Shown: piece by piece, positions 1-33,105 of the stretch
How positions within the stretch are numbered: the stretch's first letter is position 1
Layout: every line of letters begins with the position of its first letter
From: Buttiauxella massiliensis
GTDB taxonomy: Bacteria > Pseudomonadota > Gammaproteobacteria > Enterobacterales > Enterobacteriaceae
Assembly (NCBI RefSeq): GCF_902500225.1
Contig: NZ_LR722653.1
Coordinates: 151,909 to 191,908, forward strand
Length of the DNA: 40,000 nt
Direction of reading: 5' to 3'
Made by a program: the position numbers and the translations under genes
Notes under the pieces: generated by a model
What the model was told of the DNA's origin: nothing
The model's input: the letters and a program-made list of their open reading frames with translations, nothing else
The model's database searches: none

Positions 1-38
1 TATGTTGCAGTGATTATTGAAATCTTGGCACAGTCCAT
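1..38 (-). CDS. 5' end of a further glycosyltransferase (GT2-like), truncated by the window edge
   Basis: The minus strand reads ATG(38..36) GAC TGT GCC AAG ATT TCA ATA ATC ACT GCA ACA = MDCAKISIITAT. The ISIITAT(YN) start is typical of GT2 N-termini. It begins 27 nt downstream of the preceding stop. Only 12 codons are visible. Confidence 0.35.
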   Translation of the reverse strand, partial: MDCAKISIITAT

Positions 39-65
39 TGATGACCTTCCATTAATAAATTTGAA

Positions 66-833
66 TTAACCACACCAAACCCCTTTAAAAAGTAGAACCA
101 AACCTTTAAAATAACCTTCGGGAATTTTAAATAATTTTGAGCGTCTGATGAAAAAAATCAACGCAAAAAAATAAGCCTTATTCCCGAAGATTCTTTTAAG
201 GGTCACTCCTCGTGCAATTACGCTATTAGCTGTAGAGATAACCCCAGTGGATTCTAGTGGATGACTGGCGATAGTATGCGGTGTATAAGTTATTCCACCT
301 CGAGCCAGAAGAACTTTAGAAAGGAAAACCGCTTCATCCCCAATAGGTAAACAGGTGCCGGCTCCCATATCCTCAGGGAACAATGGGACATTTTTATTTT
401 TCATAGAAATCTCTATAGTCCCTACTGATAATATATTAAATCTATTTTTATTAGTGACAACTTTAGGATACTTCTTCCTTAATACGCCATGCTCATCAGT
501 AATATTAAACAAAACAACACTACCACCATACTCTTTATGCTTACCCACTATCAAATTATAAATATCAGGATTAAGAGTAATATCATCATCACAAAAGTAG
601 ATGAGGTCTCCCTGAGACATTTTTATTAAAACATTTCGACTTCTAGTAACGCCGACTTCATGAGACCTAATGTAGGTAACATCATTTCTTTTTATAAAAG
701 CAATATCACTATTTAATTCTATATCACCCTGATGACATATATAGTAATGCACATATTTTCTATAAGGAAGCAATATGTTATCGATATTATAAATACGCTC
801 CCCAAAAGTAGAAATGAGAATATCAAGTTTCAT
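66..833 (-). CDS. O-antigen glycosyltransferase (GT2-like, DxD motif)
   Basis: 255-aa ORF. The N-terminal MKLDILISTFGER and a CDDDI (DxD) motif fit a GT-A fold. It is AT-rich and overlaps the wzy stop by 4 nt, suggesting translational coupling. Confidence 0.7.
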   Translation of the reverse strand: MKLDILISTFGERIYNIDNILLPYRKYVHYYICHQGDIELNSDIAFIKRNDVTYIRSHEVGVTRSRNVLIKMSQGDLIYFCDDDITLNPDIYNLIVGKHKEYGGSVVLFNITDEHGVLRKKYPKVVTNKNRFNILSVGTIEISMKNKNVPLFPEDMGAGTCLPIGDEAVFLSKVLLARGGITYTPHTIASHPLESTGVISTANSVIARGVTLKRIFGNKAYFFALIFFIRRSKLFKIPEGYFKGLVLLFKGVWCG

Positions 834-1975
834 TTATGTCTCGCATACAAAATTGAAAGAATTGTTAACCTTGTTAGCAATAGAGTCATTATTGCAAGCG
901 GTCCAAAAGCATAACCACTGAACAATGAAAGAACGAATAAAAACGACAAGCTTAGGAATATATTTTTTAATGTGATCTTCAAAAAAGAAATAAAAACGAT
1001 TATATACAGAATGAATCCCATGAGTCCCGTCGAAATAAAAACATTACTAATAAGGTTATTGGCTTGGGTTATATCAGGAATATTAAAATTACTAAAATAA
1101 TAATTCTGAACCCAAGCTGTAATATTTCCAAAACCCTCACCACTTACGAGTAAATAATAGTGTGAATTATTTATCGCATCAACAATATAATATTTCCATA
1201 AAATCATAGAGTTAAACCTTAATAATGCACTACTTGCAGTCGTTGCGCCTTGAAATAAAAAGAATACAGAATCTATTTTACTAACAATCCAAAAATCACT
1301 ACCCGAAAGAAAGAAAACCCAAATAACAATAAGAAGCAAAAGAGAAATTAAACAATATAAAACCGCCTTAAAAATATTTCTCGAATAGAAGTAACTCAAA
1401 AAATAGCCCAATCCAAAAAGCATGAACCCGGACAGTGACCATGTTAAAAGTAATCCAATTGCCAAAACCACCACAACCTTCATTTTACTCTTTGAGATAA
1501 TGGCCATAAGAAGAGAAAGTGACAAAATAATGGCATAGTGCGATGGTTCAGCAAACAAAAAAGTCAATCGCATCAAGCCAAGGACTTCATTACTTCTATA
1601 CTCCCAGAGAGAAATTCCAAAAGTTCGTAATATTGATATAACTATTGAAAATGGAACAGAATAAGCAATTATATTAATAATTGTATTTCGAGACTGGATC
1701 AGTGATTCATTACTTATGAGGACATACAAAGAAACTGTTAAAAGGGCCAAGACCAAAGCAGGGATTTCAAGCACACCGGAATAAGCATATGCAATAATTG
1801 TTATAAGCGTAAAAAGACAGAAAATAATGACTGTCAGTATGACCTTACGTAATTCAACCCCTCTATAAAAAACGTTAAAAATAAAAAAAGGAAGAGCGAA
1901 AAAAGATCCCCATCCGCTTACACACGAAAATAACACACCTAATAATAGTGCTTTATCACCTGAATTACCCTTCAC
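830..1975 (-). CDS. wzy: O-antigen polymerase Wzy (polytopic membrane protein)
   Basis: 381 aa, extremely hydrophobic with about 10 or more predicted TM segments and a large loop region. It sits among GTs in a Wzx/Wzy-type locus. The start codon is GTG (cac at 1973-1975). Called from topology and context, not from sequence identity. Confidence 0.65.
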   Translation of the reverse strand: MKGNSGDKALLLGVLFSCVSGWGSFFALPFFIFNVFYRGVELRKVILTVIIFCLFTLITIIAYAYSGVLEIPALVLALLTVSLYVLISNESLIQSRNTIINIIAYSVPFSIVISILRTFGISLWEYRSNEVLGLMRLTFLFAEPSHYAIILSLSLLMAIISKSKMKVVVVLAIGLLLTWSLSGFMLFGLGYFLSYFYSRNIFKAVLYCLISLLLLIVIWVFFLSGSDFWIVSKIDSVFFLFQGATTASSALLRFNSMILWKYYIVDAINNSHYYLLVSGEGFGNITAWVQNYYFSNFNIPDITQANNLISNVFISTGLMGFILYIIVFISFLKITLKNIFLSLSFLFVLSLFSGYAFGPLAIMTLLLTRLTILSILYARHK

Positions 1976-3155
1976 TTATCTCACATCCATTATCCAGTAT
2001 AAAAATTGGTTTTGGCAAAAAATCATTCATTAAGTTAACAGCTTGAGAAATATTCATAACATCTTCTGACATATACACATCTTGCATTTTACTGTAGCCA
2101 AATTTCGTTTTAATTTTAGGTATCAGGCTATCAAAGCGAAGCTTCCAAATTGAAACATAGTAACAAACAAACTTAAACCAAGAAAAACCCTCATAATTAC
2201 TGGTTCTAATTAACTGTACTAACTCCTGAAATCTTTCAGGGAAAAACACAAAACATCTTGCATATAAATATGTATAGTTTAAACAAAAATCATCTTTGCA
2301 ATGAAATTCATTTATTGAAGATGATGCACTTTGAGCCCAAATAGTTGGCCCGGACCAAAATTTTGGAATTAAACTATCCCATTTAGACGACGTATCTTTT
2401 GGGAGATGCGAGATTTCTTCAATATTACCTATATGTGTACGTTTGAGACCCATTCCAGCAGTGCTCTTAACAGAACTACCCGCAATAAACACAGGCCATT
2501 CAACACTAAAAAATGATTGCACAACCAGCCCCAAACTCACAGCATTTGCCATATCTGGACTAGGTCCCGGTAGATAGCATCCGGTACGGATTTTAACTTC
2601 ATCTAAACATTTACGTTGAACTAACCCATAATAGATCCTTGGCAACCCTCCTATTATTGTAGCCCCTAAACTCAGTACTTTATTTAACTCTTTCATAGCG
2701 TCACGTCGACGAAGTACTTCAGATATACTTTTTGAGTATCTAAGTTTGCTATTATTAAATGTAGAATTATATTTACTGATTAAATCAGGCCAAGTGTAAT
2801 CGGCTTTCATTGGTAATAATGCATCTATATTTTCATCAATCATTAAGGTGGATAAAAGCAAAATACAAGGTAAAACGCCATCATCATCACCAATAGCAGT
2901 TATAATTTGACCAGAACTATTGGTGATAGCCAATTCAAAATTATCAACTACAGATAGCCACTCAGACTCATAAAAATATTTTAGCCGATGGTCAGAAAGA
3001 TACTCCTCGATTGCAAGATAAGTGGCATTATCGTCGCTATTATCTTGTACAACAATTTCAAAATCCTGAGAATCCCAAGACAATATTGACGAAAGAACAT
3101 CCCTAAGGTATTCATGTCTATTTTTTGTTGGGATTAAGATACTTAAAGACGTCAT
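1965..3155 (-). CDS. Family 2 glycosyltransferase with a long C-terminal extension
   Basis: 396 aa. The N-terminus LSILIPTKNRHEYL...EIVVQDNSDD...GDDDG carries classic GT2 motifs. It overlaps the wzy start by 11 nt. Confidence 0.8.
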   Translation of the reverse strand: MTSLSILIPTKNRHEYLRDVLSSILSWDSQDFEIVVQDNSDDNATYLAIEEYLSDHRLKYFYESEWLSVVDNFELAITNSSGQIITAIGDDDGVLPCILLLSTLMIDENIDALLPMKADYTWPDLISKYNSTFNNSKLRYSKSISEVLRRRDAMKELNKVLSLGATIIGGLPRIYYGLVQRKCLDEVKIRTGCYLPGPSPDMANAVSLGLVVQSFFSVEWPVFIAGSSVKSTAGMGLKRTHIGNIEEISHLPKDTSSKWDSLIPKFWSGPTIWAQSASSSINEFHCKDDFCLNYTYLYARCFVFFPERFQELVQLIRTSNYEGFSWFKFVCYYVSIWKLRFDSLIPKIKTKFGYSKMQDVYMSEDVMNISQAVNLMNDFLPKPIFILDNGCEISEG

Positions 3156-3229
3156 TATTCATCCAATTTAAAATTCATTGAAACTCATACAGATAATAAA
3201 TTAAATATGAGTTTCAAATATTATCAAAA

Positions 3230-4243
3230 TTATTCCATACCTAGTTCTTTACGAACATATTTGAGAGTCAGCAATAGCTCCATCACTTGCTCAACATTTA
3301 AACGCTCAGTGTTATGAGATGTATAATCATCGAGTTCATTTAAATCAACCTGCCCAGTAGTAATGTATTTATCATAATTTAAATCACGATTATCCGCAGG
3401 TATTCTATAATAACGCCCCATATCTTCTGCTTTAACCATTTCCTCTCTGGAGACTAACGACTCATATAACTTTTCACCATGACGTGTCCCAATAATTTTG
3501 GCCTCAGTATCACTTTTACATAACTGCTTAATTGCTTCTGTGAGGTCGTTAATTGTGCATGCAGGAGCTTTCTGAACAAAAATGTCGCCCTGTTGTCCAT
3601 TTTCAAAAGCATGTAAAACCAGATCTACTGAGTCTTCTAAAGACATAAGGAAACGTGTCATATGTGGATCAGTAATGGTCAATGGTTTATTATTTTTTAT
3701 TTTTTCCAAAAATAAAGGAATAACTGATCCACGTGAAGCCATTACATTTCCATAGCGCGTGGCACACATAATCGTACCATTCGGTTTTTGACGTCGAGCT
3801 TTGGCAATAAGCACCTTTTCAGCCATAGCTTTGGATATACCCATTGCATTGATAGGATAAACAGCTTTGTCAGTACTTAGTAAAACAAGCCTTTTTACAT
3901 TTCGATCAATGGCAGCATTTAAAACATTTTCAGTACCGTAAACATTTGTCTTAACCGCCTCCATAGGATAAAACTCGCAGGATGGTACTTGTTTCAAAGC
4001 TGCAGCATGGAACACATAATCTACACCATCCATTGCACGATAAAGAGTTTCATAATCTCTTGTATCTCCGATTACAAATTTAAGCTTAGGATTAGCAAGA
4101 GCAATACGCATATCTTCTTGCTTCTTCTCATCTCGGCTAAATACTATAATCTCTTTTACATTTGTATTCAAAAAACGTTTCAGGACGGTATTACCAAATG
4201 AACCTGTTCCACCAGTAATCATTAACACTTTATCTTTAAACAT
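3230..4243 (-). CDS. fnlA: UDP-N-acetylglucosamine 4,6-dehydratase/5(3)-epimerase, FnlA/CapE/WbjB subfamily
   Basis: 337 aa. It has the Rossmann motif ITGGTGSFGN. STDKAVYPINAMGISKAM carries the MxxxK catalytic signature, with Met in place of the SDR Tyr, that distinguishes CapE/FnlA from PseB/PglF. It aligns end to end with my recollection of WbjB/Cap5E. Confidence 0.88.
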   Translation of the reverse strand: MFKDKVLMITGGTGSFGNTVLKRFLNTNVKEIIVFSRDEKKQEDMRIALANPKLKFVIGDTRDYETLYRAMDGVDYVFHAAALKQVPSCEFYPMEAVKTNVYGTENVLNAAIDRNVKRLVLLSTDKAVYPINAMGISKAMAEKVLIAKARRQKPNGTIMCATRYGNVMASRGSVIPLFLEKIKNNKPLTITDPHMTRFLMSLEDSVDLVLHAFENGQQGDIFVQKAPACTINDLTEAIKQLCKSDTEAKIIGTRHGEKLYESLVSREEMVKAEDMGRYYRIPADNRDLNYDKYITTGQVDLNELDDYTSHNTERLNVEQVMELLLTLKYVRKELGME

Positions 4244-4319
4244 AAAAAACCCTATAATCTCTATAGTACATTACTTATAATTAAGTATATTTAAATTATA
4301 AGTTACGTTATTTATCATT

Positions 4320-5684
4320 CTAAAAAAACAAATAATGACTTATAATCACCCCGCACCAATAAACAACAACTGCAGGAACGAAAGCAGGTATAATATACTT
4401 CAAGATATCTTTTATGCAAAACTGCACCTTTGATAAATAAAGACATCTAATCCCGCACAATACAATCACCAAACTGTAGTATACGCAAAAAACCCATGCA
4501 ATATAAGTGGAGTACCCAGTAACCCCCATAAAAAACACTGAAATAGCAAAAAGCAGTGATGATATTACTGAAAACTTAGCCTGAAACTTATAATCCTCCG
4601 CCACCGTCATCAGTACTGAGGGAATATAGCTTAATGCACCTATAACGAAAGCTGGTAATAACACCTTAGAAAACGTTAACACATCAGGTAATAGTGGATT
4701 ACGTCCAAGCCACAAACTTAAAACGTTTTCTAAAAACGGATACACAAATAAAACCGGGAGCACAACCATTATATAAATGGTCAAGCAAAATAGTAAGCTG
4801 TATTTTCGGTAATTTGCATCATTCTTAGTTATATTACTAACGATAAATGGTTGATAATACTGTTTTATTGGACCAGCGATAGCCAGAATTGGTGTGGTAC
4901 TAAATGTAAATGCGAGATAATATGCTGCTAAAAAACTAGCACCTTCGAATTTACTTAACACTATTTTGTCTAATTGCATAACTAGTGCTGCAGAAAATCC
5001 AAATAGTAGTAATGGGAAACCTTTTTTTACCAAAGGCAATACCCCAAAAAATATTTTTTTTATATCTAATGAAGATATTGGCCCAACCTTTAAATAGGTT
5101 GGTAAAAATACAAATATCATTGCAAATACAATTGACACAATAGTTTGTGACAAAATAAACACAAAAATATCATTTGAGATGTATTTTATAGCGACCAATG
5201 TCACAACACCTCTTAAAACGACAGAAAAGAACAGCAAACCACCACTGACTTTAAACTCTTTAAGCCCATTCAGATATGAAACTGATACATTCTGTATAAG
5301 AAGTGATAATATTAATAACAATGTTGACAGCATTGTCAATTCATCGAAATCACCCCAGCCATATACAAATGAAAGAGGAAAATAAATTACGTATGTACAA
5401 CTATAAAATATTATCAATAATAATATTGCACTTAAATATTGTTCATATCCTTTACGTTGACTGACTTCACTATCTGCTGCATCCCTACCAATTATGGTGG
5501 TAGTACCAAAATCAAGAGTTAGTGCCGCACTAACTAACGATAACAATAAGGCTACTTGTCCAAAGCTTTCGGGCCCCAAAACCTTGCTGTATATTGGCAT
5601 GAAAAAAAAGCCAACCATTAAGGCTCCCATTTTCCCAAAATACAGCATGCCTAAATCAAATATTTTTTTACTCATTAACGTCAC
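4320..5684 (-). CDS. wzx: O-antigen flippase Wzx (MOP/PST family)
   Basis: 454 aa with about 12 or more hydrophobic segments. The N-terminal region ...GKMGALMVGFFFMPIYSKVLGPESFG is typical of polysaccharide-biosynthesis (Wzx) proteins. The start is either GTG at 5684 or ATG at 5675. Confidence 0.8.
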   Translation of the reverse strand: MTLMSKKIFDLGMLYFGKMGALMVGFFFMPIYSKVLGPESFGQVALLLSLVSAALTLDFGTTTIIGRDAADSEVSQRKGYEQYLSAILLLIIFYSCTYVIYFPLSFVYGWGDFDELTMLSTLLLILSLLIQNVSVSYLNGLKEFKVSGGLLFFSVVLRGVVTLVAIKYISNDIFVFILSQTIVSIVFAMIFVFLPTYLKVGPISSLDIKKIFFGVLPLVKKGFPLLLFGFSAALVMQLDKIVLSKFEGASFLAAYYLAFTFSTTPILAIAGPIKQYYQPFIVSNITKNDANYRKYSLLFCLTIYIMVVLPVLFVYPFLENVLSLWLGRNPLLPDVLTFSKVLLPAFVIGALSYIPSVLMTVAEDYKFQAKFSVISSLLFAISVFFMGVTGYSTYIAWVFCVYYSLVIVLCGIRCLYLSKVQFCIKDILKYIIPAFVPAVVVYWCGVIISHYLFF

Positions 5685-5686
5685 AA

Positions 5687-6805
5687 CTATTTAATTTCAG
5701 TCATAATTAAAGTGATAATTTTCTCAATTTCTTTCATAGAAAGCCACCAACCGCAAGGTATTGCAACAAGACTAGTCTCAATTTTATCAATGCCGGGTAA
5801 TATTCTTTTAGAAGAATTAAAACAGCTGTAACGATCATTCCGCATGTGTAAGGAGGAAACACTCACACCATGCATTTTCATATTAGCTATAAATTCCTCT
5901 TTTCTATCTACATGAATAAAAAGAACCCATCCATTCACAATTGCTCCACTAATTGGTGAAACCACTGACCCACAACCCTTTTCAAAAGAATGGGATAAGC
6001 TATCTAGCATTCTTTTGAAATTTTCTATAGTTTGAATTGTACGCTGCTCAAAATTGCTTTTTAATTTATAATAAGCAATAGCAGCACTTATATTATTGAT
6101 ATTATATGAATAACCATAAGTTTCAACATCTTTGCTTTCATTAATCTCTCCATTGTTTTTTCTAAAACCCATAAAATCGACACCAAAACGCCTTCTTTTA
6201 CGAGCAACAACCGCATGTTCAAACGAAGAAAATGCTATACAGCCACCATCAATTGAACCTATTTGCCTATTAGGATAGAAGGAAAAAATAGCTGCATCCC
6301 CCCAACTTCCAAGCAAGGTATTATCAAGCCTACTACCGAATGCAGAATTACAGTCTTCGATTAAATACAAAGAATTTTTTGTACAGAAGTCTTTAATTTC
6401 TCTGACATCGGCGGGATAACCAGCGACATGATAAACAAGTATAGCTTTCGTTTTTGATGTCACTAGTTTAGCTATTTCATCAACTCTAACACTGAGTGTT
6501 GTCGGATCAAGGTCAGCCCATACAGGTATAATACCTTTAGTTGCTAAAGGAGACGTTGTTGCAAGGCAGCTAAATGGCGATACAATAACTTCATCCCCCT
6601 CCACTACACCTAATACATCAAGTACTATAGACAGACCGTTAGTCATATCATTAACTGATACAGCATGTTTTCCATTTAATAAATCTGAGATTGAATTCTC
6701 AAGCAACGAGACATACTCACCATTGGCTACCATTCCAGAATCGAAAATATCACAGGTTATTTTTTTTATTTCATCATCATAATCTACATTAAATAAGTTA
6801 ATCAT
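5687..6805 (-). CDS. DegT/DnrJ/EryC1-family paralog lacking the PLP Schiff-base lysine (K to R); function uncertain
   Basis: 372 aa, collinear with the adjacent aminotransferase. Shared motifs are IEDC..., FSF......DGG, GY.YN.NN and IPCGWW.S. It reads FSFYPNRQIGSIDGG where the neighbour reads FSFQAIKHMTTVDGG. SSGTAAL is also replaced by NDMTNGL, and DCAHALG by DCNSAFG. Confidence 0.8.
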   Translation of the reverse strand: MINLFNVDYDDEIKKITCDIFDSGMVANGEYVSLLENSISDLLNGKHAVSVNDMTNGLSIVLDVLGVVEGDEVIVSPFSCLATTSPLATKGIIPVWADLDPTTLSVRVDEIAKLVTSKTKAILVYHVAGYPADVREIKDFCTKNSLYLIEDCNSAFGSRLDNTLLGSWGDAAIFSFYPNRQIGSIDGGCIAFSSFEHAVVARKRRRFGVDFMGFRKNNGEINESKDVETYGYSYNINNISAAIAYYKLKSNFEQRTIQTIENFKRMLDSLSHSFEKGCGSVVSPISGAIVNGWVLFIHVDRKEEFIANMKMHGVSVSSLHMRNDRYSCFNSSKRILPGIDKIETSLVAIPCGWWLSMKEIEKIITLIMTEIK

Positions 6806-6808
6806 AAA

Positions 6809-7903
6809 TCAACCTTTCTTAATTTCGTCAACAATCGTTTCACGTATCGTTTCGCTAACCCACCATCCACATGGAATGTGCACTAGCCTTGAATAAAAGT
6901 AATCGAGATTATTCATATCAGCTGATTTAAATTTACTAAACATGGTATGATAGTGATTTGGTCGGTGTAATTTTGATGCCATTACATCAACAGATTTCAA
7001 CTTCTTAATAAGATTATCTGAATCATCACTAAGCAACGTATATAACCAATAACTAGGTTCACAAAGTGAGGATGACTGAACAACTTGGACGCCAGATACA
7101 TTTTCTAAATTTTCATCAAAGAATTGACCGTTATTTTTATGCTTATTAATATTATCAATAGCAAAATCAAGTTGTATATTCCCTATAGCACCAGTAAGAT
7201 TATTCATGTTGTATTTATATCCTAAACTGGAAACATCCATCAATGTTCTATCAATCCCTTTTTCCATCCCAAACCATCGGATTTTTTTCGCTTCACTTAA
7301 TAAAGAATGATTCTTAAATGAAAGAAATCCACCATCAACCGTAGTCATATGCTTTATAGCTTGGAATGAAAATATACCAAAATCACCAATAGTACCAACC
7401 GGTTGGTTATCATATTTTGCCCCAAGAGCATGGGCGCAATCTTCTATAACACTAATATCACTATTAATCGCTTTAATTTTTTCCATCAACTCTTTCATTT
7501 CGACCAAATAACCAGCATAGTGCACAACGACAATAGCTTTGGTTTTGGATGAAACCATTGAAATAATAGATTGAGGATCAAGACAACCAGTTATTGGATG
7601 AACATCCGCAAATACAGGAATACCTCCAGTTTGTACTATAGTGGTATTTGTTGGCTCTGCAGTCATACTAGTTGTTATTACTTCATCTCCCGCTTTTACT
7701 CCTGCAAGTATTAGCGCTGTATGAAGTGCAGCCGTACCGCTACTCATGGCGACTCCTGTAGGAACATCGAATATTTCACGAAATTTATTTTCGAACGTGT
7801 AAACATGCTCCCCTTCACCGATCATACCACTATAAAGAACATCTTCTATTTCTTTCATCAAAATATCTTTTGGCGGCATGAATACTTTTACGATTGGAGT
7901 CAT
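6809..7903 (-). CDS. DegT/DnrJ/EryC1-family PLP-dependent nucleotide-sugar aminotransferase
   Basis: All canonical motifs are present: MSSGTAALHTAL, IEDCAHALG, and FSFQAIKHMTTVDGG with the catalytic Lys. The ORF track starts at 7918. ATG at 7903 has the better SD (GAGAGG about 8 nt upstream) and sits 1 nt after the upstream TGA. Confidence 0.85.
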   Translation of the reverse strand: MTPIVKVFMPPKDILMKEIEDVLYSGMIGEGEHVYTFENKFREIFDVPTGVAMSSGTAALHTALILAGVKAGDEVITTSMTAEPTNTTIVQTGGIPVFADVHPITGCLDPQSIISMVSSKTKAIVVVHYAGYLVEMKELMEKIKAINSDISVIEDCAHALGAKYDNQPVGTIGDFGIFSFQAIKHMTTVDGGFLSFKNHSLLSEAKKIRWFGMEKGIDRTLMDVSSLGYKYNMNNLTGAIGNIQLDFAIDNINKHKNNGQFFDENLENVSGVQVVQSSSLCEPSYWLYTLLSDDSDNLIKKLKSVDVMASKLHRPNHYHTMFSKFKSADMNNLDYFYSRLVHIPCGWWVSETIRETIVDEIKKG

Positions 7904-7904
7904 T

Positions 7905-8705
7905 TCATATCCTCTCATTTAGTTTAAAGTCTACAGAATTATAATTTTCTTCTGTATTATCGTTTGCGAATATCTTGATCATTCTTATATTTTGATCTTT
8001 ACTTTTTATTTCCAAAAGCGCTCTTAAGCTATAAAAAAAAGACAGTTGGTCAATAGTTGTATTTATATAAAACCCATTAGGTGAAAGTTTGTCCATTACA
8101 CTACACATGTCATTTATTGCACATTCATAGTCAATAACATAAAACTCTTTTTCGCTGGCGCAATATACTATATAGCTATTATCCCATTCTAATCTTTCTT
8201 GATATATTGCAAATGGTGGTAGAGATTTATCATTTAATGTATAATGCTTGATTTCTATTTTTTTTTCAGCATTATTTATGATGATATTTTTTTTTCTAAT
8301 ATAGATGAGAACATTATGATCTATTAATTTATAACCATGTTTTTTGTACAGATGATGCTGCCCCGACCATAATATTGCTAACTGTATATTTTCACATTGC
8401 ATTAACTCATCAGCTTTATTCATGAGCAAACTGAAATATCCAAGACCGCGATAATCTTCATCTATACATACCAATCCTATAATTGCTGTTCGAATATTAT
8501 TTTTTATTTCTATCTTTAGTGTCATCCCACCAATAAGTTTAATTCCGCTATGTATTTCAATTGTATAAAAAAATGCATCTGCATTGAAAAACCAAGGGAA
8601 ATGTAGTTCAAATTTAATCCCTCGTTTTTTCTGGGTGAAAAATGTTTTCCAGCATAATTCTTTATATTCACTGGATAGTTGTTTACGTATCTCTATTCGA
8701 CTCAC
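7905..8705 (-). CDS. GNAT-family N-acyltransferase with an unassigned ~120-aa C-terminal domain
   Basis: 266 aa. The acetyl-CoA motif A, IGLVCIDEDYRGLGYFSLLMNKA (R-x-x-G-x-G), lies in the N-terminal half. It is the first gene after the JUMPstart. The only available start is GTG (cac at 8703-8705). Confidence 0.65.
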   Translation of the reverse strand: MSRIEIRKQLSSEYKELCWKTFFTQKKRGIKFELHFPWFFNADAFFYTIEIHSGIKLIGGMTLKIEIKNNIRTAIIGLVCIDEDYRGLGYFSLLMNKADELMQCENIQLAILWSGQHHLYKKHGYKLIDHNVLIYIRKKNIIINNAEKKIEIKHYTLNDKSLPPFAIYQERLEWDNSYIVYCASEKEFYVIDYECAINDMCSVMDKLSPNGFYINTTIDQLSFFYSLRALLEIKSKDQNIRMIKIFANDNTEENYNSVDFKLNERI

Positions 8706-8754
8706 GGCCCCTCCGATGAATGAAAAAAGTGTGCACAGGATTCTTTTAAATAGC

Positions 8755-8793
8755 CATGCTACCGCCCCAGGCTTAACAGCTACCAGTGGACTG
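8755..8793 (-). promoter_or_regulatory. JUMPstart element with ops site (RfaH recruitment) in the O-antigen operon leader
   Basis: The minus strand reads CAGTCCACTGGTAGCTGTTAAGCCTGGGGCGGTAGCATG. This closely matches the 39-bp JUMPstart consensus and contains ops GGCGGTAGnnTG (8766..8755). It lies about 50 nt upstream of the first O-antigen gene. Confidence 0.85.
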
Positions 8794-9066
8794 AAATCTC
8801 AAACACTTGCCAATCTCTCAGGCTCGCATTTGGCTAAATTTTGAGAAACATTCGAATGAACAAGTAGTTAGTTAGAGTAACTATTTAGATAACAAGCATT
8901 TTCTAGTTCATTCAGAAATGCAGATGACAATTATTTTATTCACACTTTGTAACACGCAACTCAAAAAAAACGGCAACCAGTCTCAATGAGGTTTCAACTA
9001 AGAAATCTCACCGCCACATTGATCGCCGTTCTGCATCAAATGCTCACCACCATTGTTCTAAAACGC

Positions 9067-9963
9067 TTAGCGCGCCAGCAGCTTCTGAATGCTGTCCCTG
9101 AACTTCTGACCTTCTTTATGGTTACGCAGACCGTATTGTACAAATGCCTGCATATAGCCCATTTTCTTACCGCAGTCATAACTTTCGCCAGTCATCAATG
9201 CAACTTCTACCGCTTGCTTTTTATTAAGTGCAGCGATGGCATCGGTAAGCTGAATACGTCCCCAGGCACCCGGCTCGGTTTTCTCGAGTTCAGCCCAGAT
9301 ATCAGCTGACAGAACATAGCGCCCTACCGCGGCCAGATCGGAATCCAGTGTTTGTGGTTCATCCGGTTTTTCCACAAACTCGACAATGCGGCCAATCTGC
9401 CCATCATTATCTAGTGGTTCTTCCGTTGTGATAACTGAGTACTCAGACAAATCAACGTTAGGCATGTGTTTTGCCAGAACCTGGCTGCGCCCTGTCTCTC
9501 TGAAACGCTCAACAATCGCCGCTAAATTATAACGCAGTGGGTCAGCACTTGCGCCATCAAGGATAACGTCAGGCAATACCACAACAAATGGGTTGTCACC
9601 AACAATCGGACGGGCGCACAAAATGGAGTGACCAAGGCCTAGCGGTTGAGCTTGACGTACGTTCATAATCGTCACGCCCGGAGGGCAGATTGACTGAACC
9701 TCAGCGAGCAACTGGCGCTTAACACGCTGCTCAAGCAGAGCTTCAAGTTCATAAGATGTGTCGAAGTGGTTTTCAACAGCATTCTTGGATGAATGCGTTA
9801 CCAGCACGATTTCCTTGATACCAGCAGCTACAATCTCATCGACGATATATTGGATCATCGGCTTATCGACGATCGGTAACATCTCTTTTGGGATAGCTTT
9901 TGTTGCGGGCAACATATGCATGCCCAAGCCTGCTACCGGAATAACTGCTTTCAAATTAATCAT
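9067..9963 (-). CDS. galF: GalF, UTP-glucose-1-phosphate uridylyltransferase-like subunit
   Basis: Near-identical to my recollection of E. coli GalF ([52 protein letters not shown]...). The ORF track starts at GTG 9975. ATG at 9963 reproduces the K-12 N-terminus and has a GAGGTG SD about 9 nt upstream. Confidence 0.95.
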
Positions 9964-9992
9964 ATTCAAGCCCACCTCAAAATGGTTGGGGG

Positions 9993-33067: not shown

Positions 33068-33105
33068 CATGCTACCGCCCCTGGCTTACAGTCACCAACC
33101 TACTG
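33068..33105 (-). promoter_or_regulatory. JUMPstart/ops element in the colanic acid (wza) leader
   Basis: The minus strand reads CAGTAGGTTGGTGACTGTAAGCCAGGGGCGGTAGCATG. ops GGCGGTAGCATG lies at 33079..33068, 189 nt upstream of the wza ATG. The 3' 14 nt are identical to the O-antigen copy at 8755-8768. Confidence 0.8.

Follow-up and report, generated by a model that had tools for sequence, protein, structure and literature searches.

An invariant arginine at the Schiff-base lysine position of a DegT-family protein paired with a canonical aminotransferase in a predicted L-RhaNAc3N cassette of Buttiauxella massiliensis

The Schiff-base lysine is taken as the defining residue of pyridoxal phosphate (PLP) enzymes, and among their sugar-modifying members the sole recognised exception is the histidine of the 3-dehydratases. 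In the pathways to dTDP-Qui3NAc and dTDP-Fuc3NAc, a cupin 3,4-ketoisomerase (QdtA or FdtA) acts before the C3 aminotransferase. For UDP-L-RhaNAc3NAc and UDP-L-RhaNAc3NFo, the review of Liu et al. assigns a pathway that is not experiment-based, with WeiP/WekE and WeiQ/WekF as aminotransferases, WeiS/WekG as dehydratase/epimerase, WeiO as acetyltransferase and WekD as formyltransferase (PMC7685785), and rhnABC of Acinetobacter baumannii encode homologs of WeiS, WeiP and WeiQ (PMC9676051). A tandem pair in which one member lacks the lysine is known from SerTA, by its authors' account the first heterooligomeric aminotransferase studied, where Lys-less Ser4 is needed for activity through the residues that it gives to a shared active site (PMC11726168). 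Here we describe two adjacent DegT genes in a 40,000-nucleotide stretch of Buttiauxella massiliensis DNA (contig NZ_LR722653.1, positions 151,909 to 191,908; hereafter the window). One product, which we call DegT-R, carries an arginine in place of the catalytic lysine, whereas its Lys-type partner, DegT-K, is canonical. DegT-R is very probably a selected, non-classical and essential member of an L-RhaNAc3N cassette. The pair and its diagnostic codons lie as follows.

5687-6805, minus strand: DegT-R, ATG start, 372 amino acids (aa), motif SFYPNRQ; ortholog of WeiQ (O109) and WekF (O119)
6266-6268, minus strand: Arg180 codon AGG, at the internal-aldimine lysine position
6809-7903, minus strand: DegT-K, canonical aminotransferase, motif FSFQAIKH; ortholog of WeiP/WekE
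7352-7354, minus strand: lysine codon AAG of DegT-K, read from the DNA

Both proteins match PF01041 (DegT_DnrJ_EryC1) far above its cut-off of 19.8 bits, DegT-R with 200.7 bits over residues 10-366 and DegT-K with 264.5, and BLASTP aligns them with 32% identity over 358 residues (E = 8e-53). In this alignment FSFYPNRQIGSIDGG stands against FSFQAIKHMTTVDGG, which puts the arginine opposite the lysine. phmmer comparison with the solved AtmS13 and with an ArnB-like structure likewise placed fsfqalkhl and fsfhankn opposite fsfypnrq, and the register of Arg180 was the same in four independent alignments (BLASTP, phmmer, MAFFT of 122 sequences and L-INS-i of 88 sequences). An earlier note on this DNA, made from the letters alone, had proposed the K-to-R change at the Schiff-base position; no alignment placed a lysine there. 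Its other readings of the pair were borne out too: the blocks IEDC, GY.YN.NN and IPCGWW.S are present in both proteins, the altered cofactor motifs (NDMTNGL for SSGTAAL and DCNSAFG for DCAHALG) are seen in the BLASTP alignment, and the 372-codon frame is intact and separated from DegT-K by 3 nucleotides (TGA-TTT-ATG). The DegT-K frame has an alternative upstream ATG at 7918 in the open reading frame (ORF) listing. Thus DegT-R lacks the Schiff-base lysine of the SF..K motif, with Arg180 at that position, and keeps both the aspartate that contacts the cofactor ring nitrogen (D151) and the serine of the SF motif (S175), both of which are invariant in the Arg family as well as in Lys-bearing relatives. 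Its AF2 model (pLDDT 90.7) matched TlmJ, ArnB, AtmS13, WbpE and perosamine synthase in Foldseek with TM 0.85-0.91 at identities of at most 27%, and this model confirms a fold-type I aminotransferase architecture for DegT-R. The earlier note knew of no characterised family member with arginine at this position, and we found none in the Protein Data Bank or the searchable literature. Searches of that literature for Lys-less Arg DegT proteins, for a DegT-fold ketoisomerase and for the biochemistry of WekE, WekF, rhnB or rhnC returned only the Liu review, the Acinetobacter paper and SerTA as relevant, and no mention of the Arg-for-Lys change of WeiQ, WekF or RhnC was found there.

We compared DegT-R with its 120 best database homologs, which are 35-55% identical to it and come from hosts including Pseudomonas, Vibrio, Shewanella, Ralstonia, Deefgea, E. 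albertii, E. coli and Lelliottia. All 120 carry the arginine within an SFYPNRQ-like motif in the MAFFT alignment. So do all 45 DegT-R loci from a scan of one genome per species, which span alpha-, beta- and gammaproteobacteria, Treponemataceae, Flavobacteriales, Puniceicoccaceae, Myxococcales and a Pseudobdellovibrio, as well as 63 of 63 informative metagenome loci, retrieved with the Lys-type family alignment and counted as informative when at least 700 nucleotides (nt) of downstream sequence were present. An arginine column that is invariant across these three sets is far beyond chance. About 35 positions are invariant across the Arg family, among them D151, S175, Y177, P178 and R180. At greater distance, about 49 of the best 111 full-length 50%-identity clusters have the arginine. 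The family is abundant in metagenomes. A protein recorded from B. massiliensis is 100% identical to DegT-R; with 54% identity, the proteins of E. coli O182 and E. albertii come next as its nearest relatives. Between E. albertii and E. coli O182, dN/dS was 0.19 for DegT-R, 0.055 for DegT-K, 0.039 for the FnlA-like gene of the same cluster and 0.23 for its GNAT gene. The check for conservation of the arginine among orthologs therefore came out in favour of a maintained residue, and the earlier note's argument against decay was strengthened both by this invariance across phyla and by the dN/dS value.

The arginine is one of several changes in the active site. Fixed differences between the Arg family and the partner family are D53-M54 for Ser-Gly, Y125 for Val and Y177-P178-N179-R180-Q181 for Q-A-I-K-H; in addition, the Arg family has N/S154 where a histidine usually contacts O3' of the cofactor. 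Comparison of 49 Arg-bearing with 61 Lys-bearing cluster representatives showed that the features most tightly linked to the arginine are an inserted loop, followed by Y125, Y177 and N179.

6143-6166, minus strand: loop F214-R215-x3-G219-E220-I221 (FRKNNGEI) of DegT-R, an insertion that goes together with Arg180 and that Lys-bearing relatives lack or show as a gap

Within this loop, E220 was found at a frequency of 0.88 in Arg against 0.07 in Lys representatives, F214 at 0.90 against 0.13 and G219 at 0.92 against 0.25, and F214, R215, E220 and I221 are invariant in the Arg-family alignment. Cys80 and Tyr326, considered as new catalytic residues, were rejected, as both are common in Lys-bearing relatives. 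Remodelling followed by fixation, with retention of the Asp and Ser that anchor the cofactor, is more readily explained by a changed function than by a dead pocket.

DegT-R is also strictly associated with its neighbour. A Lys-type DegT gene (motif S[FL]QAIK) lies directly upstream of the DegT-R gene in 44 of 44 genome loci with upstream sequence, and in the reverse search an Arg-type gene followed directly downstream of the Lys-type gene in 63 of 63 informative metagenome loci, a single apparent exception having been resolved. The gap between the two is mostly -4 to +15 nt. Phylogenetically, the Arg and Lys families are reciprocally monophyletic, and their pairwise distances are correlated with r = 0.77, compared with about 0.5 for either family against the FnlA-like gene. 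DegT-R and DegT-K are thus an ancient obligate gene pair. The earlier note's description of them as tandem paralogs holds for the paralogy; it does not hold as a local duplication, because the two families are each monophyletic and old. The second place in such tandems is also taken by more divergent Arg lineages, with motifs such as SFQTVR or SFNPVR; there, too, an SFQAIK DegT precedes, and an FnlA-like gene and an acyltransferase lie alongside. We found no Lys-type/Arg-type fusion proteins, the long matches being DegT domains split by an insertion (~350 aa) or two Lys-type domains in tandem. Stop-codon read-through, for which the two frames here are in register (TGA TTT ATG), was considered as a means of joining the two proteins and rejected, since the spacing differs among loci.

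A few deep relatives at the second position carry lysine, namely P0177 (SFYPNK), P0164 (SFHAVK) and P0172 (SFHAAK). P0177 lies on metagenome contig L137 at 4524-5645, with lysine codon AAA and with an FnlA-like gene and a GNAT gene nearby, and P0164 on L139 at 1770-2897; around P0172, no FnlA-like gene was found within 7 kb and a pyridoxamine-phosphate-oxidase-like gene is present. Because these same-position relatives keep the lysine, the DegT-DegT-GNAT tandem predates its loss: the role of the second protein tolerated the arginine and then fixed it. Some loci depart from the usual layout. In V. vulnificus (L003/L004, 7572-8000) and on L137 (4029-4523), the two DegT genes are 430-500 nt apart rather than a few bases, and no ORF is evident in the L137 gap. 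In L133 (8080-8559) and L134 (3003-3482), a 159-aa ORF that has no Pfam match stands after an Arg-type gene of the SFQTVR lineage and before wzx. Seven Lys-type relatives (P0154, P0201, P0229, P0250, P0171, P0244 and P0242) are 650-880 aa long, with the DegT domain interrupted by ~250-380 aa at varying points; DegT matches cover the N-terminal 80-220 residues and also what remains at the C-terminus, and the insertion could be an intein or an inserted domain.

The surrounding genes place the pair in an O-antigen cluster, all transcribed from the minus strand in the order galF, GNAT, DegT-K, DegT-R, wzx, FnlA-like, GT2, Wzy-like, second GT2.

9067-9975, minus strand: galF, preceding GNAT in the direction of transcription
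7905-8705, minus strand: GNAT N-acetyltransferase, WeiO-like, Pfam Acetyltransf_9/7/1 over residues 19-127
4320-5684, minus strand: Wzx flippase, Pfam Polysacc_synt_3/Polysacc_synt
3230-4243, minus strand: FnlA-like UDP-GlcNAc 4,6-dehydratase/5-epimerase of WeiS/WekG type, PF02719 (358 bits) and PF08485
1965-3155, minus strand: GT2 glycosyltransferase, 396 aa, Pfam Glycos_transf_2 over residues 5-115
After the 396-aa GT2, minus strand: Wzy-like membrane protein, for which Pfam gave no match, then the second GT2

The FnlA/UDP-GlcNAc context that the earlier note had assumed is therefore present. This gene order equals that of an E. albertii cluster, which in turn has 91% DNA identity to the E. 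coli O182 O-antigen cluster. A megablast of the window gene pair against complete E. coli genomes gave no match, and the O182, O109 and O119 clusters were reached through the E. albertii homolog and by distant blastn. The cluster of strain 2009C-3133 is the one we take to be O119, from its WekD-G gene content and the serotype of the strain. DegT-R is 37% identical to WeiQ (277 bits) and 36% to WekF (254 bits), compared with 30% to WeiP and WekE (164 and 174 bits); WeiQ reads SFYPNRL and WekF SFYPNRI, so both have the arginine. DegT-K is 56% identical to WeiP and 55% to WekE, and the FnlA-like protein 80% to WeiS and 78% to WekG. The GNAT shares 34% identity with WeiO over 118 residues and is presumed to acetylate the 3-amino group; the 396-aa GT2, 33% identical to its E. 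coli O109 homolog, is the presumed transferase for the RhaNAc3N residue. The loci also share their synteny, with an acyl- or formyltransferase, a Lys-type DegT, an Arg-type DegT, wzx in some and an FnlA-like gene. On sequence and gene order, DegT-R is the ortholog of WeiQ/WekF, the second DegT of the L-RhaN3N cassette. These names, together with RhnB/C, and their designation as "aminotransferases" of the L-RhaN3N pathway had been missed by the earlier note.

Across the related loci with enough flanking sequence, an FnlA-like gene occurs in nearly all (among metagenome loci that extend at least 5 kb downstream, in 30 of 35), a Wzx homolog follows DegT-R in most, and a homolog of the ~390-aa GT2 is found in nearly all. 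The sugar-synthesis genes, Wzx and this GT2 seem to travel as one cassette across phyla (loci L006-L049). DegT-K is preceded by a GNAT gene in 25 loci and by a hexapeptide-type acyltransferase gene in 5, while other loci have a formyltransferase gene there; the minimal O119 cassette comprises no more than a formyltransferase, a DegT of each type (Lys, then Arg) and an FnlA-like gene. In V. vulnificus (L003/L004, 4746-6460), the cassette comes with a gene for a 3-hydroxyacyl-CoA dehydrogenase, which adjoins a hexapeptide-type acyltransferase; another such dehydrogenase gene goes with the cassette in a Treponemataceae metagenome-assembled genome (L037, 8032-8871). This hints at 3-hydroxybutyryl rather than acetyl on the 3-amino sugar. 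In the window, the GNAT protein is 266 aa long and its C-terminal ~140 residues have no Pfam or NCBIfam match; homologs in the 25 loci are of similar length (mostly 266-308 aa), and the region showed no similarity to the C-terminal parts of the hexapeptide and formyl variants.

The sugar of the Buttiauxella cassette is probably L-RhaNAc3NAc or a relative of it. E. coli O182 is reported to contain 2,3-diacetamido-2,3-dideoxy-L-rhamnose (Senchenkova et al. 2016). Judging by the title of Perepelov 2011 as cited in the Liu review, the O109/O119 product keeps its C3 substituent and a C4 hydroxyl (PMC7685785). A second "aminotransferase" is odd in such a cassette, because the sugar requires a single new amino group, on C3, and its C4 OH is retained. 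By analogy with the dTDP-sugar pathways, a redox-neutral route from the 4-keto product of the FnlA-like enzyme would pass through 4-keto to 3-keto isomerisation, C3 transamination and N-acylation. No cupin or reductase was found in the window cluster or in the minimal O119 cassette, and no spare ORF in the window cluster, and DegT-R is the sole conserved cassette protein that has no assigned step. We therefore put first, tentatively and as a reading short of an even chance, that DegT-R is a partner that does not transaminate and that either carries out the 4-to-3 keto shift or makes it possible. In this scheme, the FnlA-like enzyme would convert UDP-GlcNAc to UDP-4-keto-6-deoxy-L-HexNAc, DegT-R would move the keto group from C4 to C3 or enable its move, DegT-K would transaminate C3, and the GNAT would acetylate the new amine to give UDP-2-acetamido-3-acylamino-2,3,6-trideoxy-L-mannose (L-RhaNAc3NAc and relatives) for the O-antigen. 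DegT-R itself would not transaminate; acid/base chemistry could come from Arg180, Tyr177, Tyr125 and the FRxxxGEI loop with Glu220. DegT-R and DegT-K may well form a complex, in which the labile 3-keto sugar would be handed over directly.

Several points weigh against this assignment. We know of no DegT-fold ketoisomerase, and K-to-R is a classic inactivating substitution. FnlA-type enzymes already deprotonate C3, and the FnlA-like enzyme could carry out the isomerisation itself, since the WeiS type, which scores 538 bits with the TIGR04130 FnlA model (cut-off 730), forms a subfamily of its own. The spacing after the lysine of DegT-K (K+7/8 = GG) looks C4-aminotransferase-like, and AtmS13 and CalS13, the closest solved relatives of DegT-K (3.5e-61 and 3.9e-56, respectively), are of C4 type as well. 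The Arg family evolves faster than its partner, with a mean identity of 47% against 61% and the higher of the two dN/dS values (0.19 against 0.055), and the few deep second-position relatives named above retain lysine. Finally, SerTA is a precedent for a tandem Lys-less partner that is non-catalytic yet needed for activity (PMC11726168). The idea that the C-terminal half of the GNAT conceals an isomerase was rejected as a general answer, since the formyltransferase and hexapeptide variants do not have such a region and O119 offers only four candidate genes.

Nearly as likely as an isomerase, though in itself less likely than not, is a non-catalytic DegT-R. As a pseudoenzyme subunit in a hetero-oligomer with DegT-K, it would complete or reshape the active site of its partner in trans, by way of the FRxxxGEI loop for instance, and moving the keto group would fall to the FnlA-like enzyme or to the DegT-K site. 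The strict adjacency, fixed gene order and short gaps seen in both search directions would all follow from such a subunit, as would the correlated divergence of the two families (r = 0.77) and the faster evolution of the Arg family. K-to-R preserves size and charge while removing Schiff-base chemistry, and the residues with the tightest link to Arg fall in the 205-226 loop, a region that in DegT structures reaches into the neighbouring subunit. Ser4 with Ser5 in SerTA provides the model (PMC11726168). However, the residues of DegT-R's own site (D151, S175, Y177, P178, N179, R180 and Q181) are invariant rather than degenerate, and DegT-R is full length whereas Ser4 is truncated. DegT-K for its part keeps all canonical residues, including its own trans-loop K230-Y231-N232-M233, and so looks self-sufficient as a homodimer. 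A subunit of this kind would also leave isomerisation without a dedicated gene, and no fusion of the two types was found.

Improbable by comparison is a pyridoxamine phosphate (PMP)-dependent enzyme of the ColD/E1/SpnQ kind, which would hold PMP non-covalently and catalyse C3 elimination, or replacement of 3-OH by 3-NH2, on a 4-keto sugar. Known Lys-less DegT proteins are indeed PMP-dependent 3-dehydratases, and ColD, E1 and a putative 3-dehydratase are among the Protein Data Bank matches of DegT-R. The cofactor pocket may persist, because D151 (the pyridine-nitrogen contact), S175 and usually T/S55 are retained. But Asp53-Met54 replace the Ser-Gly of the phosphate-binding motif, and the NCBIfam RfbH/E1 model gave DegT-R 110.7 bits against a cut-off of 423, matching residues 26-211 only. 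The residue by which the dehydratases are recognised is His rather than Arg (bioRxiv 10.1101/2021.09.04.459008). A reductase for the 4-keto group that would be left over is missing from the cassettes, and the dehydratase option raised in the earlier note is further argued against by the sugar, which, as far as the cited title tells, keeps its 4-OH and has nitrogen at C3.

That DegT-R is a genuine aminotransferase using another residue as catalytic base is less probable still. PGAP and the literature annotate it so, and the few Lys-bearing relatives at the same position would agree. Yet only one new amino group is needed and a canonical aminotransferase adjoins, no second acylated amine has been reported, and K-to-R mutants of fold-type I aminotransferases are essentially inactive. 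DegT-R also scored far under the cut-offs of all NCBIfam equivalogs compared (PseC, ArnB, WecE, DesI and LegC), the best being PseC with 137.9 against 423.5. Least of all is DegT-R likely to be an inactive relic turning into a pseudogene: the lost lysine and faster rate would suit decay, but every locus examined, the present one included, has an intact frame, dN/dS stands at 0.19, the arginine and ~35 positions are invariant across phyla, and the gene is kept beside its partner in every locus with enough sequence, which refutes this option of the earlier note.

The wider locus has the features of an acquired O-antigen cluster. G+C content is 32-35% in the O-antigen genes (positions 1-9000) and ~50-55% in most galF and colanic-acid genes, with dips to ~41-45%; such a sharp change, at ~9 kb, is typical of laterally acquired O-antigen clusters. 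The colanic-acid genes lie upstream of the O-antigen genes in the window. The O-antigen cluster runs past the left end of the window, where its E. coli O182 counterpart has one more GT2 and gnd. Two ops/JUMPStart cores were located.

8759-8766, minus strand: ops/JUMPStart core GGCGGTAG, 54 nt upstream of the GNAT start, ahead of the O-antigen operon
33072-33079, minus strand: second ops/JUMPStart core GGCGGTAG, upstream of the wza-like start of the colanic-acid cluster

By number alone, two such matches are not beyond chance, as at least two were reached in 13 of 100 shuffles.

A phylum-spanning clade with an invariant arginine is a clear departure from the lysine rule. It stands always beside a normal aminotransferase and at a step that is unaccounted for, namely the conversion of a 4-keto UDP-L-sugar to a 3-amino sugar by gene sets that include no ketoisomerase gene. 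The sugars concerned are those of E. coli O109 and O119 and reportedly O182, with homologous gene sets in E. albertii, Vibrio vulnificus and predicted Acinetobacter capsule loci, and annotation of both DegT genes as aminotransferases is probably wrong for one of them. More speculatively than the keto-shift role itself, Arg-type DegT proteins might represent a third functional class of the fold, next to Lys transaminases and His dehydratases: a 3,4-ketoisomerase that works without a Schiff base or, in a hetero-oligomeric isomerase/aminotransferase, the half that isomerises. Such a protein would convert UDP-4-keto-6-deoxy-L-HexNAc to a 3-keto sugar channelled to the neighbouring Lys subunit. If true, this would be the first non-cupin nucleotide-sugar ketoisomerase and would close the gap in L-RhaNAc3NAc biosynthesis. 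The fold, the cassette and the gene names were already known; we found no earlier description of the arginine's invariance, of the loop coupled to it, of the strict pairing or of the empty slot for an isomerase. DegT-R would surprise a sugar enzymologist, yet it could prove to be a scaffold subunit.

Compared with known systems, DegT-R shares with ColD, E1 (RfbH/DdhC) and SpnQ a DegT fold that lacks the Schiff-base lysine. These are PMP-dependent NDP-4-keto-sugar 3-dehydratases that act on 4-keto-6-deoxy nucleotide sugars and are often encoded beside a true aminotransferase. Their reaction takes the oxygen off C3; the DegT-R cassette, by contrast, is credited with a sugar that has a C3 nitrogen and a C4 OH. 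At the lysine position, they carry His where DegT-R carries Arg (bioRxiv 10.1101/2021.09.04.459008). Ser4 of SerTA, from Serratia sp. ATCC 39006, likewise belongs to a tandem pair annotated as sugar aminotransferases of which one lacks the lysine. Ser4, however, is truncated in its N- and C-terminal regions, whereas the 372 aa of DegT-R align end to end with AtmS13; and DegT-R, for which binding to its partner is proposed, sits in a nucleotide-sugar cassette. AtmS13 and CalS13 are the best Protein Data Bank sequence matches of both DegT-R and DegT-K, with a shared C-terminal PxGWW and a Foldseek TM of ~0.9, but they are canonical Lys enzymes only ~27% identical to DegT-R. The cupin 3,4-ketoisomerases FdtA, QdtA and Tyl1a fill the pathway slot that is vacant in the DegT-R cassette; the likeness would be one of function only, as their fold is unrelated (cupin against DegT) and they act on dTDP-D-sugars rather than a UDP-L-sugar. 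Closest are WeiQ of E. coli O109, WekF of O119 and RhnC of the A. baumannii KL166/KL224 loci, which resemble DegT-R in belonging to the same full-length family (36-37% identity for WeiQ and WekF) and in the SFYPNR motif. Although only moderately similar to DegT-R in sequence, they occupy the same place, after a Lys-type DegT and near an FnlA-like gene and an acyl- or formyltransferase.

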